A stretch of 12,688 nucleotides of DNA from positions 1-12,688 of the forward strand of contig JBGQMY010000026.1 of the NCBI GenBank assembly GCA_041500865.1, read 5' to 3'. The stretch is from Candidatus Micrarchaeia archaeon. GTDB taxonomy: Archaea; Micrarchaeota; Micrarchaeia; Anstonellales; J096. The number at the start of each line of letters is the position of its first letter. Within the stretch, counting starts at the first letter, position 1. The notes under the pieces are model-generated. The model saw only the letters and a list, made by a program, of their open reading frames with translations, was not told the origin of the DNA and searched no databases. Position numbers and translations under genes: made by a program. Positions 917 through 11,718 of this stretch are shown one piece after another.

Positions 917-1375
917 ATGGCAGGCAAAACACCGGCAAAAATGAAAATGGGCAAAGAAAAGCAGATGGAGCTGGACGAGGCCCTTTTGGCGGCAGCCAGC
1001 GAAGGCAGAACTGCGGATGCCAAAAAACTGATTGGCTCAGGCGCGGATGCCAATGCCAAAGATGGCGAAAAGTGGAGCGCGCTCATGTACGCTGCGTCAA
1101 ACGGGCATACCGATACGTGTGCTCTGCTGATTGAAAAAGGCGCGGATGTTGAAGCAAAGAACGAAACCGGCAAGACTGCCTTGATGTATGCAGCGGCAGA
1201 AGGCCATACAAAGACATGCGAATTATTGGTGGAAAATGGCACAAAAACAGGGGAAAGGAGCATCTGCGACATGACCGCGCTCATGTTTGCGGAATCAGGC
1301 AACAAGGCGGAAACTGCGGCATTCCTGAGGTCAGTGGAGGCCGGAACAGGACCAAGCAAAAAACGCAAAAAGTAG
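917..1375 (+). CDS. Ankyrin repeat protein (ANK-2)
   Basis: SALMYAASNGHTDTCALLIEKGADVEAK and GKTALMYAAAEGHTKTCELLVENG repeats. TTTAAA at 888-893 lies 23 nt before the ATG. Ends GPSKKRKK. Confidence 0.93.
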   Translation: MAGKTPAKMKMGKEKQMELDEALLAAASEGRTADAKKLIGSGADANAKDGEKWSALMYAASNGHTDTCALLIEKGADVEAKNETGKTALMYAAAEGHTKTCELLVENGTKTGERSICDMTALMFAESGNKAETAAFLRSVEAGTGPSKKRKK

Positions 1376-1422: not shown

Positions 1423-2283
1423 ATGAGGCTTAAGGAAATCGTGTTCATAGGCGTCGGCGGGGGAAGGACCGCAGTTATAAGGCAGTATAAGGACTTCGGG
1501 ACCGGCGGGTTCAGGATAAACGGGGATTTGAACATCTACGTGGACCCTGGCCCTGGCGCCGCAGTTTACTCCTCGCAGCTTGGCCAAAGCCTGGAAAACA
1601 TAGACATCCTGATAATCAGCCACAACCACCTTGACCACATGGGCGACGCGGAAGTGCTTGCAGAGGCCATGAACGGGTTCGGTTTTGAGAAGAAGGGCAT
1701 GCTGATAGCGTCTGACGCCTGCATAAACGGGCCGAAGGGGGACAGGGCGGACAGGGCGATGGACTCATACCACATGAAGATGTTCAAGGAAATAATGATA
1801 GGCAAGCCCGGGGAAAAGAAAAAAATAACAAAGAACGGGAAGTCCTTCGAGATTGAGTTCACTCCTACGAAGCACGAGGACCCGAGCGGCTTCGGGTTCG
1901 TCATCAGGGCGGAAAACGCGTCGATAGGCTACACGTCCGACACAGAATACATGAAGGGCCTGGAATCGCATTTCATGGGCGTGGACGTGCTTATACTCAA
2001 CGCAATAAAGATGCGCCACAAGGACAGCCTATACAAAGGCCACATGGCGGTCTTCCCGGACGCGGAAAATATCATAAAGGCAATAAGGCCGGACATTTCC
2101 GTATTAAACCACCTTGGCCACGAGATAATAAAGGAAGGCAGGATGGATGAGCTCAGGTTTGAGATGAACTCGAAAACCGGCGAACAGGTCATGATACCGC
2201 GGCAGGGCTACAAGGTAAACCTGTCCAACCCGCTGATGTTCCCAAAGAAATTCAAATTGCTGAAAGGGAGGAAAGGCCAATAG
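1423..2283 (+). CDS. MBL-fold metallo-hydrolase (archaeal PhnP/RNase Z-like group)
   Basis: Motifs FIGVGGGR, YVDPGPG, SHNHLDH (HxHxDH), TKHED, GYTSDT, GH and NH. Start moved from 1216 to ATG 1423, which follows TTATTAAA (1393-1400) and avoids overlap with ANK-2. Confidence 0.88.
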   Translation: MRLKEIVFIGVGGGRTAVIRQYKDFGTGGFRINGDLNIYVDPGPGAAVYSSQLGQSLENIDILIISHNHLDHMGDAEVLAEAMNGFGFEKKGMLIASDACINGPKGDRADRAMDSYHMKMFKEIMIGKPGEKKKITKNGKSFEIEFTPTKHEDPSGFGFVIRAENASIGYTSDTEYMKGLESHFMGVDVLILNAIKMRHKDSLYKGHMAVFPDAENIIKAIRPDISVLNHLGHEIIKEGRMDELRFEMNSKTGEQVMIPRQGYKVNLSNPLMFPKKFKLLKGRKGQ

Positions 2284-2285
2284 CT

Positions 2286-2314
2286 TTTTAGCACCTTTTG
2301 CGCATAATAGACGC
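2286..2314 (+). promoter_or_regulatory. Putative TATA box plus CATAAT element for ANK-3
   Basis: TTTTAG(2286-2291)-N11-CATAAT(2303-2308)-N6-ATG(2315). Confidence 0.55.
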
Positions 2315-3040
2315 ATGGCTCTGAAAGCGGGGGAATCAAAACTCTCCAAAGGCATGCGCAGGATAAGGGAGTTATTCCACAAGCCCAAATCCGAAAAGGC
2401 AAAGAGGATAAGCGGCTTGGAGCAGGCCAAGCTCAATATCAGCCTTTATTATGCAGTGCGAGGCAACGAACCAGATGAAATCCGCAGGCTGATTAAGGCA
2501 GGCGCGGATGTTGGCGCAACCTGGGAATCGGAGGTGCCGCTGCTGGCACATGCGGCATTCCTTGGCAATGCCGAATCCTGCAAAGCGCTCATAGAGGGCG
2601 GGGCTGACGCCAATGCAAAGGATAAGGTCGGCAGAACCATGCTGATGTATGCAGTACAAAAGGAAAGTTTCGGAATCTGCGCGTTGCTGGTTGAAAAAGG
2701 GGCGGATGTCAATATAAGGGACAAGGAAGGCATTAGCGCATTGCAGGAGGCGGCCGTCAGGAACGAACCAGATATATGCAAGCTGCTTATACTACATGGG
2801 GCAGACGCCAGTTCCGTCATTAAGGCATTAGATAACTTATACTATAACTGGCATTCCATGAAGGGGAATGGGGTGTGGGTTGGCCGTGCGGAACAAACCA
2901 AGAAATTTCTCGTAACTGCGCTTGATTTGGCAGGTTTTTTCGTTGGCGGCGTGGATTCGTTGCGCCACAGCCCGCGCAAGGCAGACAAGGGATACTCGCT
3001 TTTCATGGAAAGCTTTAATCTATGCATCTCGGGAAAATGA
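2315..3040 (+). CDS. Ankyrin repeat protein (ANK-3)
   Basis: About 4 repeats (LIKAGADV, LIEGGADANAKDKVGRTMLMYA, LVEKGADVNIRDKEGISALQEAA, LILHGAD), a basic N-terminal leader, and C-terminus FMESFNLCISGK. Confidence 0.92.
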   Translation: MALKAGESKLSKGMRRIRELFHKPKSEKAKRISGLEQAKLNISLYYAVRGNEPDEIRRLIKAGADVGATWESEVPLLAHAAFLGNAESCKALIEGGADANAKDKVGRTMLMYAVQKESFGICALLVEKGADVNIRDKEGISALQEAAVRNEPDICKLLILHGADASSVIKALDNLYYNWHSMKGNGVWVGRAEQTKKFLVTALDLAGFFVGGVDSLRHSPRKADKGYSLFMESFNLCISGK

Positions 3041-9068: not shown

Positions 9069-9081
9069 GCAGCCAATAGCG

Positions 9082-9110
9082 TTTTAATCTGTTTGCCGCA
9101 CAATAAAGGC
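9082..9110 (+). promoter_or_regulatory. Putative TATA box plus CACAAT element for ANK-4
   Basis: TTTTAA(9082-9087)-N11-CACAAT(9099-9104)-N6-ATG(9111). Confidence 0.65.
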
Positions 9111-9926
9111 ATGGAAGAGCGCAGGACGTTCCGCGAAAGGGCAAAGGGTGCTGCAAAGGCATCAGCCAAATTTCTGAAAAAGCTTAGCCCAGAGCGCGCC
9201 ATGTCCAGACTAAGGCTGAACATGGAACTTGACAAAGCCCTGTCTGCTATAGATAAAAACACGAACACAAACTGGCTCAAGAATATAATGGAGCTTGTCC
9301 AGAAAGGCGCAAACCCAAACCTGCAGACCATGGACGGATATACTCCATTGTTCTCGGCTGTAAAGGAGGGCAATGCCGAGGCATGCGCATTTCTCATTGG
9401 AAAGGGAGCGGATGTCAGCGCAGCGAACAAGCACGGCAGGACAGCATTGCACGCTGCTGCACGCTGGGGACGCACTGAAATCTGTGTCTTGATTATAAGG
9501 GAATATGCAAAGGCAGGCCGGAACGTAACTAACCTTATCGCCGCAAAGGACGGAATCAACGAGACACCTCTGCACGATGCCGCAAGCAAAGGGAATGCCG
9601 AAACCTGCGCGCTGCTGATAAAAGAATATTCAAAGGCAGGCGGAGACGCGGATAAACTCGTCGCCGCAAAGAACGATTACAAAAATATGGCCCTGCACCT
9701 TGCCGCATCCAATGGGCATACTAAAACCTGCGCGCTGCTGATAGAAAAAGGCTCCGATATCGCCGCAAAGGGCGATAAAGGCAGGACAGCCGAGGATTTT
9801 GCCTTTTTTGCCGAAGGCAAAACCACCATGCATTTCCTCATTTTAATCAAAAAGCTTAGCGCAGCCATGGGAAAAGAGGCGTTCAGCTCGTTCATGAAAT
9901 CATTCGGCGACTGCGTTGCAGGATGA
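9111..9926 (+). CDS. Ankyrin repeat protein (ANK-4)
   Basis: GYTPLFSAV, GRTALHAAARWG, ETPLHDAASKG and MALHLAASNGH repeats, two of them 41 aa long. Ends FMKSFGDCVAG. Start set to ATG 9111 from the shared upstream motif. Confidence 0.94.
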   Translation: MEERRTFRERAKGAAKASAKFLKKLSPERAMSRLRLNMELDKALSAIDKNTNTNWLKNIMELVQKGANPNLQTMDGYTPLFSAVKEGNAEACAFLIGKGADVSAANKHGRTALHAAARWGRTEICVLIIREYAKAGRNVTNLIAAKDGINETPLHDAASKGNAETCALLIKEYSKAGGDADKLVAAKNDYKNMALHLAASNGHTKTCALLIEKGSDIAAKGDKGRTAEDFAFFAEGKTTMHFLILIKKLSAAMGKEAFSSFMKSFGDCVAG

Positions 9927-9931
9927 TGACT

Positions 9932-9960
9932 TTTTAATCTCTTTTATGCACAATGGAGCC
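9932..9960 (+). promoter_or_regulatory. Putative TATA box plus CACAAT element for ANK-5
   Basis: TTTTAA(9932-9937)-N11-CACAAT(9949-9954)-N6-ATG(9961). Confidence 0.65.
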
Positions 9961-10416
9961 ATGCAGAAAAGGGAGCTTCAAAAGAATGCGCAGGCAAAGG
10001 CGCCAGCTAAGCTAAACGCGGGCGCAATGCCAAGCGAAAAGCCACCGCTATCAGAAGAAAAGCAGAAACAGCTCAATGGCATGCTGTTGGATGCCGCTGA
10101 AAACGGCAAAACAAAAAGAGCGGAAAGATTGTTAAAAGTTGGCGCAAGCATCGAGGCAAAGGACAATGACGGCTGGACCCCGCTCATGTGGGCCGCATGG
10201 AACGGACGCACCCCAACCTGCGCCTTGCTGCTTTCAAAAGGCGCAGATGTGAACGCGAAGGCTGGAAAAGGGGATTGGAAGGGCATGACTGCGTCCTCAA
10301 TCGCCGAAAAGGGCAACAAAAAGAAAACGGCTGCATTCCTCAAGACCATGGAATGGCTTGCCGGTATAACTGGAAATGCGTTTATGAAACCGTTCGCGGA
10401 ATGCATTGCAGGATGA
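9961..10416 (+). CDS. Ankyrin repeat protein (ANK-5), short paralog of ANK-1
   Basis: MQKRELQ...MLLDAAENGKTKRAERLLKVGASIEAKDNDGWTPLMWAAWNGRTPTCALLLSKGADVNAK...FMKPFAECIAG. Start ATG 9961 aligns with the ANK-1 start. Confidence 0.94.
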   Translation: MQKRELQKNAQAKAPAKLNAGAMPSEKPPLSEEKQKQLNGMLLDAAENGKTKRAERLLKVGASIEAKDNDGWTPLMWAAWNGRTPTCALLLSKGADVNAKAGKGDWKGMTASSIAEKGNKKKTAAFLKTMEWLAGITGNAFMKPFAECIAG

Positions 10417-10417
10417 T

Positions 10418-10446
10418 TTTTAACACCTTCGCCGCACAATAAGGGC
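10418..10446 (+). promoter_or_regulatory. Putative TATA box plus CACAAT element for ANK-6
   Basis: TTTTAA(10418-10423)-N11-CACAAT(10435-10440)-N6-ATG(10447). Confidence 0.65.
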
Positions 10447-10476
10447 ATGTAGGAAAGGAAGCCGCTCCTAAGGCGG

Positions 10477-11097
10477 ATGATGGAAAAGAGAAGAGTAAGG
10501 ATACGTGAGGCATTCGCCAAGGCAAGGAGAATTCTATTCCACAAAATGGATTCGGAGAAGCTGGCATTATCCTCAGAAGAGCAGAAGCGGCTCAACGATG
10601 CGCTCCTCAATGCAGCATGGCATGGCAACAACGCGGAATTAGTGAGGCTCATCAAGGCCGGTGCGGATATTTCCGCAAAGAACAGCGAAGGTTGGGGGGA
10701 TGCATTGACGGTCTTATGGGAAGCCATAGACAGAGGATACAACCAAACCTGCGCCCTGATTATAGAGGAATATGCAAAGGCCGGCGGAAACATAAAGAGA
10801 TTCATCAGCGTAAAGAGCTATGAGAACTGGACAGTCCTGCACCTTGCCGCATCCAATGGACGCACCCAGACCTGCATCCTGCTCATAGAGGAATATGTAA
10901 AATCAGGCGGGAACGCAAATAAACTAATTTCCGCAAAGAACAATGACGGCAAGACCGCGACAATGATTGCCGAAGCAAAACACAAAAAAGAGACAGCTGC
11001 ATTCCTCACGTTCGCGCCTTTTGCGCCAAGGATTTTCGCGGACAGGGAACTGTCCAGTTCATTCTATTCAAGCTTCAATGAATGCATCAGCCAATAG
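10477..11097 (+). CDS. Ankyrin repeat protein (ANK-6); ancestral start probably ATG 10447, now followed by in-frame TAG (possible recent pseudogene)
   Basis: LLNAAWHGNNAELVRLIKAGADISAK, WTVLHLAASNGRTQTC and GKTATMIA repeats; ends FYSSFNECISQ. In-frame ATG-TAG at 10447-10452. Confidence 0.88.
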   Translation: MMEKRRVRIREAFAKARRILFHKMDSEKLALSSEEQKRLNDALLNAAWHGNNAELVRLIKAGADISAKNSEGWGDALTVLWEAIDRGYNQTCALIIEEYAKAGGNIKRFISVKSYENWTVLHLAASNGRTQTCILLIEEYVKSGGNANKLISAKNNDGKTATMIAEAKHKKETAAFLTFAPFAPRIFADRELSSSFYSSFNECISQ

Positions 11098-11364: not shown

Positions 11365-11718
11365 ATGAAAGAGGTCATCGTACTGCTTGTTCTTGGAATC
11401 CTGCTTGCCGGATGCGCGCAGCAGTCTGCAAACGCCCCTTCGCCGAATATATCAAACCAAACCTTGGTTAGTGCGGCAAACGCAACAGTCCACATAAAGG
11501 GCTTCGCGTTCAACCCTGCGGAGATAACAATCAACAAGGGGGACACAGTCCTGTGGGTGAATGACGACGGCGCGCCGCACCTTGTGAAGTTCGCGGACTT
11601 CCAGTCAGGGACGCTCAGCACAGGCGATTCCTATGGGCACACGTTCAGCGCGGCCGGGGAATATGCATATTCCTGCGGCATCCACCCGTCAATGAAGGGC
11701 AAGGTGACTGTAAAGTGA
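11365..11718 (+). CDS. Cupredoxin (plastocyanin/azurin/halocyanin-like) type 1 copper lipoprotein
   Basis: Lipobox LLAGC; FAFNPAEITINKGDTVLWVN; ligands His (APH) and C-x2-H-x2-M (YSCGIHPSMKG). Confidence 0.93.
   Translation: MKEVIVLLVLGILLAGCAQQSANAPSPNISNQTLVSAANATVHIKGFAFNPAEITINKGDTVLWVNDDGAPHLVKFADFQSGTLSTGDSYGHTFSAAGEYAYSCGIHPSMKGKVTVK

Follow-up and report, generated by a model that had tools for sequence, protein, structure and literature searches.

A C-terminal tag that is carried by an expanded protein family and read by a dedicated enzyme is a known idea (PMC1569441), and ankyrin (ANK) repeats are combined with a C-terminal box in the poxvirus ANK-PRANC/F-box and the ASB SOCS-box adaptors. 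Legionella AnkB is an ankyrin protein with a CaaX prenylation motif (PMC2916131, PMC5506055). The docking signal of Mia40 (MISS/ITS) is given the consensus X[Ar]XX[Hy][Hy]XXC in a passage of PMC2806287, and parts of PMC7159879 describe chaperone pairs of MoxR-type AAA+ and VWA proteins (NorQ–NorD, Rea1/midasin, RavA–ViaA) as well as MoxR–vWA ternary systems with zincin modules. The subject here is a short Cys-containing tail at the end of ankyrin proteins encoded by a 12,688-nt stretch of DNA (the window) from a Candidatus Micrarchaeia archaeon, the window being the complete contig C26 of its source genome (G000; 1.04 Mb, 92% complete). An earlier note, made from the letters of the window, had pointed to four such tails and described them as CaaX-like sorting, secretion, lipidation or partner-docking signals. 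We propose that the tail is an amphipathic docking handle with a functional Cys, which would be read by a cassette encoding a tandem AAA+ protein and a HExxH–VWA protein; the probability of this reading is put at about 0.4. That the tail serves as a handle for some shared partner, the cassette reader included, is rather probable, and in this respect the partner-docking signal of the earlier note coincides with the reading that sequence and model lead us to favour.

The four tail peptides lie where the earlier note had placed them on the + strand, each up against a stop codon (Table 1). ANK open reading frames (ORFs) were collected from G000 with a hidden Markov model (HMM) built from the repeats of the window, which returned 116 ORFs (~11% of 1037 crudely called genes), 113 of them with a stop codon. 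The tail closes 92 of these 113 with the pattern phi-x3-phi-x2-C, a frequency that is not due to chance, and its typical form is F-x3-F-x-[ED]-C-[IV]-small. Relative to the Cys, the 92 tails have F at -7 in 91 and at -3 in 88, E/D at -1 in 68, I/V at +1 in 70, G at -14 in 48, and S44 D11 A9 P8 at -4, counts that are partly preselected in that the set was chosen by the hydrophobic pattern at -7/-3 plus Cys. Because this pattern itself demands Cys, a recount was made without that requirement among 118 closed ANK ORFs: 95 match, 93 with Cys, 1 with Arg (a split gene) and 1 falsely. Cys also occupies the position in 37 of 38 pattern matches in the fetched parts of G001/G002, two genomes of the same genus. 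Among 108 selected paralogs, the F, F and C are kept at 97/96/100%, and the columns of the binding surface at 10–40%. The pattern is absent from 21 of the 113 closed ORFs, 19 of which are without any tail. Near the ends of the 899 other closed genes, F...F..C occurs in four: two degenerate or cut-off ANK genes, one apparent chance match and one non-ANK candidate carrier.

Over their first 10 codons, the four tails of the window have 13–23 of 30 nucleotides and 4–7 of 10 amino acids in common. Codon use in the tails tracks that of the genome (Cys TGC/TGT 86/6 vs 2714/302 genome-wide), and synonymous codons are mixed (Gly GGC/GGA/GGG 20/18/10; Glu GAA/GAG 27/26). Since the choice of codon at the key positions follows genome usage, the constraint acts on the protein, as the earlier note had held. 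The distance of the Cys from the C-terminus is not constant: among the 92 tails it stands at -3 in 21, at -4 in 54, at -5 in 10, at -6 in 4, and at -10, -11 and -16 in one each. At three loci, ANK genes follow one another head to tail with zero gap (G000:C1:52261-54726, C15:5900-7255 and C2:54053-55468), and several of the -5/-6 positions arise because upstream tails in such gapless arrangements end in GGG/GGA/GGV. Thus, the spacing given in the earlier note, -4 in three tails and -5 in one, is right for the window and does not extend to a general rule.

The tail lies beyond the repeats, as had been claimed for it. In an AlphaFold2 model built from 108 paralog ends, the pLDDT is 95–98 through residue 100, a long helix spans residues 85–101, and a separate tail helix at residues 106–114 is predicted in the part of lowest confidence (pLDDT 74 and 67). 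Foldseek fits the N-terminal ~91 model residues onto whole DARPins, C-cap included, with a root-mean-square deviation of 1.1–1.5 A, so that the ankyrin C-cap is complete by residue ~91–93 and the tail comes after it. In the model, the tail is not required for capping, for the solenoid is already closed and tail-less paralogs exist. On its hydrophobic face, the predicted tail helix presents F(-7) and phi(-6) together with F(-3), C and phi(+1), and position -1 is acidic; the alternation in hydrophobicity along this helix is of the amphipathic-helix type, in agreement with the amphipathic F..F..C helix that had been suggested, and the preceding helix also has alternating hydrophobic positions. 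A membrane helix (above KD 1.6) is found in 1 of the 92 tailed ANK proteins, and the lack of a transmembrane helix or of a basic cluster after the motif sets the tail apart from the PEP-CTERM/PGF-CTERM sorting signals. The Mia40 signal offers a closer likeness: it too is an amphipathic helix, on which the docking Cys shares a face with an aromatic residue at -7 and a hydrophobic one at -3. It differs in that the tail has mostly Ser, not a hydrophobic residue, at -4, is C-terminal, has a single Cys instead of a CXnC pair and is non-mitochondrial. With no claim of homology, the Mia40 signal can be taken as a functional model of how a helix may steer its Cys onto a partner.

The candidate reader is encoded on contig C1 of G000 by four genes: a 178-aa gene, a tandem AAA+ gene, a 124-aa gene and a 1125-aa HExxH–VWA gene. 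As in the MoxR–VWA pairs, an AAA+ gene (recognised by its AAA matches in Pfam) adjoins a DxSxS VWA gene, and the best fold matches of the HExxH–VWA model (pLDDT 67) are the NorD VWA domains of NorQD complexes. The cassette differs from these pairs in its tandem AAA+, in the fusion of HExxH and VWA within a protein of 1100–1330 aa, in its two extra small genes and in its proposed clients, which would be ANK or HEAT paralogs that are scattered and number in the dozens. HExxH and DxSxS (MIDAS) are invariant in 9 of 9 HExxH–VWA proteins, and in a weak alignment of the first small protein, all 5 sequences have an N-terminal Cys. Nine of 31 relatives have the cassette (G000, G001, G002, G008, G011, G014, G016, G020 and G030), including all six with at least 25 Ank_2 matches (113, 95, 93, 73, 42 and 25, counted as matches and not as genes). 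In the phylum, the giant HExxH–VWA gene is full-length in 5 of 301 genomes, and 3 weak partial matches were found besides. Metagenome contigs hold three cassette loci, all genus-like; viral contigs hold no cassette. At locus L241, tail-bearing ANK genes flank the cassette on both sides, and at L240 one lies behind it.

In three genera, the cassette is accompanied by repeat families with Cys tails, and some of their genes are adjacent to it. In G008, which has the cassette, 13–14 of 28 ANK proteins in the 655 kb read end in L-x3-L-x2-C-[ND]-K and an additional helix, the Cys lying 13–18 residues from the end; no tailed ANK gene of this genome adjoins the cassette. This ANK expansion of G008 (loci L022, L023 and L028–L031) is second to that of G000 and has a tail of its own. 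In G016 and G011, HEAT-repeat genes flank the cassette; their products have charged leaders and end in NPF..L..LAM..LC[SLV]. All six Cys-tailed HEAT genes of G016 and 3 of the 11 of G011 stand at the cassette, and elsewhere in 41 genomes a single match was found (E 0.008). In G000, 38 Cys at -3 (six of them from another family) and 53 at -4 were counted, vs 12.3 expected. In G007, a cassette-negative genome of the same genus as a cassette-bearing relative, Cys counts are flat over the last 20 positions of 701 genes, and neither a C-terminal Cys excess nor a shared-tail family was found in the 716 kb read. None of the 19 ANK proteins of the cassette-negative genomes G007, G010, G018 and G023 has a Cys tail.

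The tail of G000 is found in one genus only. A 32-position tail profile matches 93 times in G000, 26 in G001 and 36 in G002, once and weakly in G018, and in none of the remaining 37 of 41 relatives; among 251 genomes of the phylum, it matches two. Searched against 1.84 billion representative proteins, the profile gave 51 matches, all C-terminal, of which 48 are ANK proteins and three are short fragments; 13 of the 51 are identical to G000 proteins across the aligned stretch. Six single-member matches in Pfam (E 0.03–0.25) are unrelated, and the one match among PDB sequences (DAD1, E 0.5) is judged to be chance. Nearly all carriers are paralogous ANK proteins, and five apparent non-ANK matches of the tail HMM were rejected as degenerate or cut-off ANKs. 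The remaining candidate is a 330-aa non-ANK protein with a basic leader (G000:C13:15918-16910), which has no match in Pfam or NCBIfam and no usable one in the ESM Atlas. Its C-terminus fits the tail pattern, and three homologs (56–62% identical) retain a TFFxEFADC[VI]L end. This one family suggests, from its sequence, that the tail is portable beyond ANK proteins, in line with the portable signal envisaged in the earlier note. The same genome has another family with a Cys close to the C-terminus: seven Cys-rich paralogs of ~535 aa, six of them in tandem (G000:C11:21395-30884 and C35:195-1796), end in [WL]-[DS]-I-Y-N-I-[GA]-C-x(2-3).

A number of observations weigh against the cassette as reader or against a portable tail. 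The zincin fold is not among the listed fold matches of the HExxH–VWA model. In the close relatives G002 and L239, no ANK gene lies directly behind the VWA gene, and as a measure of chance adjacency, a tail-bearing ANK gene is the neighbour of 104 of the 922 non-ANK genes of G000. Presence in G008 with absence from G007 is a profile common to 83 of 892 G000 genes, so it does not single out the cassette. In G020 and G030, of another family, an ANK gene comes immediately after the VWA gene of the cassette, yet 17 of their 18 ANK proteins are tail-less and the other is a loose match. The two ANK proteins each of G011 and G014 have no tail, and G014 has the cassette with no tail family in the 130 of ~600 kb read, where one HEAT_2 match was found. 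HHalign detects no homology among the three tail types (HEAT, ANK of the G000 genus, and ANK of G008), and their Cys stand 2, 3–6 or 13–18 residues from the end. The compared genomes are kin and incomplete, and the co-occurrence counts are given without phylogenetic correction. As for portability, the 330-aa carrier scores only 8.3 bits with the tail profile (10 of 258,025 internal windows score as high, and ~0.2 such matches are expected at protein ends), other stretches of its family are invariant too, and searches of G001 and G002 did not return it.

Under the proposed mechanism, the tail would be a constant docking handle on variable binder proteins, a function deduced from its being unneeded for capping and more conserved than the binding surface. 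The cassette would recognise the tagged ANK proteins and then capture, remodel or cleave them. For the MoxR/VWA pairs, section 8 of PMC7159879 states a common mechanism in which the VWA protein captures a peptide and MoxR then remodels, and section 24 describes some MoxR–vWA systems that come with zincin peptidases whose targets are conserved C-terminal peptides. More speculatively, the acidic residue of the tail could complete the VWA MIDAS metal site, the tail Cys could meet either the zinc of HExxH or the N-terminal Cys in the first small protein of the cassette, and the tagged proteins might be exported towards a host. In its widest and doubtful form, the proposal would be that a Micrarchaeia family evolved Cys-helix tagging, with one tag–reader pair per genus, in which the cassette recognises, cleaves or covalently engages the helix and loads or exports ANK binders (in two genera) or HEAT binders (in the third) to the host. 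If true, Cys-helix tagging would amount to a new route of protein targeting in the DPANN archaea, whose action on hosts as symbionts is largely an open question. For Wolbachia, a passage of PMC3563639 gives 23–60; this 1-Mb archaeal genome, ~11% of which encodes ANK proteins, exceeds that number, and most of its ANK proteins have one undescribed C-terminal module. The reader of this module, whatever its identity, would control ~90 binder proteins together, and even if the cassette is the wrong reader, the tail and its HEAT parallels can be used as markers with which to find candidate effector-like families. Searches of open-access full text returned no account of either the tail or this ANK expansion, and the only mention of ankyrin in the portion of PMC7414124 covered concerns Undinarchaeota, which are said to be without such genes.

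Among the alternatives, lipidation is the one suggested by the label CaaX, which a passage of PMC13524398 defines as Cys-aliphatic-aliphatic-X. The tail resembles the end of AnkB in that it belongs to an ankyrin protein, its near-terminal Cys is most often at -4, and an aliphatic residue follows (a1 is I/V/L in 46 of the 54 tails with Cys at -4). Judged by its sequence, the tail is not a canonical CaaX box. The residue at a2 is A/G/S in 47 of these 54 and V/I/L/M in 1, two upstream Phe, unnecessary for CaaX, are conserved like the Cys, and the carrier is archaeal. The earlier note had named a varying Cys distance as a potential refuter of its reading, and across paralogs the distance does vary: 38 of the 92 Cys are off -4, tails that are 96% identical finish in CIAG or CIG, and Cys is at -4 in 21 of the 39 tails from the parts of G001/G002 that were read and in 30 of 51 library matches. 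Of the genes of the pathway, whose co-occurrence the earlier note had proposed to look for, few were matched in this 92%-complete genome. G000 gave 0 matches to PPTA (PF01239) and 0 to Rce1 (PF02517), for which controls were positive in 11 of 14, and 0 to Prenyltrans (PF00432) in a search that also matched no control; it has one ICMT-family gene (PF04140), a family matched in 5 of 14 control prokaryotes. Modification by a host farnesyltransferase (FTase) after delivery to a eukaryotic cell, as with AnkB, or by an unknown archaeal enzyme, is very unlikely, and the analysis gives no sign of a eukaryotic host. Prenylation in such a host keeps a small probability because yeast FTase tolerates most CXXX sequences (a passage of PMC10320760) and the last residue is mostly A/G/Q/S (72 of 89) and seldom charged; prenylation is also possible on shorter and longer forms (a passage of PMC10541624).

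The tail could instead be a docking box for another shared partner, such as a machine of the host or of the cell itself or a general secretion ATPase, with the cassette link incidental. A constant module on variable binders fits this view equally, as do the basic leaders, the rarity of membrane helices and the exceptions to a cassette link whose profile is not unique. The ANK-box adaptors likewise join a variable ANK binder to a short constant C-terminal module, but the Cys spacing here is unlike the LxxxC of the BC-box, no F-box, PRANC or SOCS box was matched in Pfam among 70 tails (E up to 1) or in NCBIfam, and the tail has no Pfam, NCBIfam or PDB sequence match to any box. NCBIfam models of Dot/Icm Ank effectors were rejected, their matches being far under the cut-off and owed to generic repeats. 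This alternative, which leaves unexplained why all six Cys-tailed HEAT genes of G016 stand beside the cassette, is somewhat unlikely. Self-association of the helix-turn-helix module, by F/F/I packing with a Cys disulfide or a shared metal to give homo- or heterodimers of ANK binders, is unlikely: the exposed hydrophobic face, the low confidence of the monomer model there, the single conserved Cys and the alternating hydrophobic positions of the preceding helix agree with it, but it predicts neither the cassette linkage nor the parallel Cys tails on HEAT proteins. A merely structural cap, with the Cys buried on an extended last helix and inherited through duplication, would explain why the tail directly follows the cap helix, is predicted to be helical and is carried almost exclusively by paralogous ANK proteins. 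It is quite unlikely, given a solenoid that is closed before the tail, the 21 of 113 ANK ORFs without the pattern, the non-ANK family with the same ending, and a Cys that in 93 of 94 true tails is not swapped for Ala, Ser or Val. Conservation at the DNA level, where the peptide would be a by-product of a recombination site or of the promoter element of the next gene, is extremely improbable: tail codons in arrays do abut the TATA-like element of the next gene, but their genome-like usage largely refutes this view, and many tail genes are not followed by an ANK gene.

Table 1. Coordinates of the tails, ankyrin genes and promoter-like elements in the window, and of the HEAT-repeat loci in related genomes.
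Feature	Position	Strand	Description
Tail FMKSFGDCVAG* (F-x3-F-x-D-C-V)	9891..9926	+	Cys codon 9912-9914, position -4; ANK protein 9111-9926
Tail FMKPFAECIAG* (F-x3-F-x-E-C-I)	10381..10416	+	Cys codon 10402-10404, position -4; ANK protein 9961-10416
Tail FYSSFNECISQ* (F-x3-F-x-E-C-I)	11062..11097	+	Cys codon 11083-11085, position -4; ANK protein 10477-11097
Tail FMESFNLCISGK* (F-x3-F-x2-C-I)	3002..3040	+	Cys codon 3023-3025, position -5; ANK protein 2315-3040
Post-repeat module	10327..10416	+	Predicted extended second C-cap helix (model residues 85-101), Gly turn, tail helix
ANK gene	9111..9926	+	271 aa counted from promoter-defined ATG; basic leader, ANK repeats, tail
ANK gene	9961..10416	+	151 aa; basic leader followed by N-cap, a single repeat, C-cap and tail
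ANK ORF	10477..11097	+	206 aa, tailed
ANK gene	2315..3040	+	241 aa; linker ahead of tail longer, divergent
ANK gene without tail	917..1375	+	Stops just past C-cap; natural control, tail-less members exist in family
ANK gene, truncated by contig end	2..604	-	Tail status not readable
ANK-family promoter-like element, 36 nt	9078-9113	+	TTTTAA..CACAAT..ATG; common to family
ANK-family promoter-like element, further copies	9928-9963, 10414-10449, 2282-2317	+	
ANK-family promoter-like element, minus-strand copy	637-602	-	
HEAT-repeat family beside cassette	L118 (G016:C23:40966-59999), L117 (G011:C7)		Undescribed

Besides its six ANK ORFs, the window contains archaeal housekeeping genes (class I LysRS, RpoL and DUF373), and all four tailed ORFs are ankyrin proteins by Pfam. 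The promoter-like element has 89 sites of at least 20 bits in the genome. An ANK gene was assigned to 60 of them, and the remaining 29 include several further ANK starts or remnants. At 10447-10452 of the window, the ATG of the family promoter is immediately followed by TAG where paralogs have M-Q-E-R-K, for which reason the ORF at 10477-11097 is probably damaged or restarted at 10477. Two deletion remnants of ANK genes lie at G000:C11:280-333 and G000:C17:1033-1121; one has a full family promoter and an 18-aa ORF comprising the tail alone, and in the other the leader is joined out of frame to the tail. The ANK family is fast-turning and has a shared promoter, basic leaders and numerous broken copies. 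The leaders have a median net charge of +5 vs +1 in other genes, and a basic leader as a tail-linked feature was rejected, as tail-less ANK proteins also have +4.5 (n=8).

Two other genes of G000 stand under ANK-type promoters. The first (G000:C8:7298-8506) encodes a 403-aa protein with ~35-aa tandem repeats (ILKxPQFAxLDHARVxREA). The second (G000:C1:24038-25195) is tentatively read as a methyltransferase-like gene by its GAGAG motif; G008 has an apparent homolog (L113:4796-5920) at a distance of ~6 kb from its cassette, and none was found in G007. Within the window, the gene at 11365-11718 encodes an ordinary cupredoxin with an N-terminal LLAGC lipobox-like motif.

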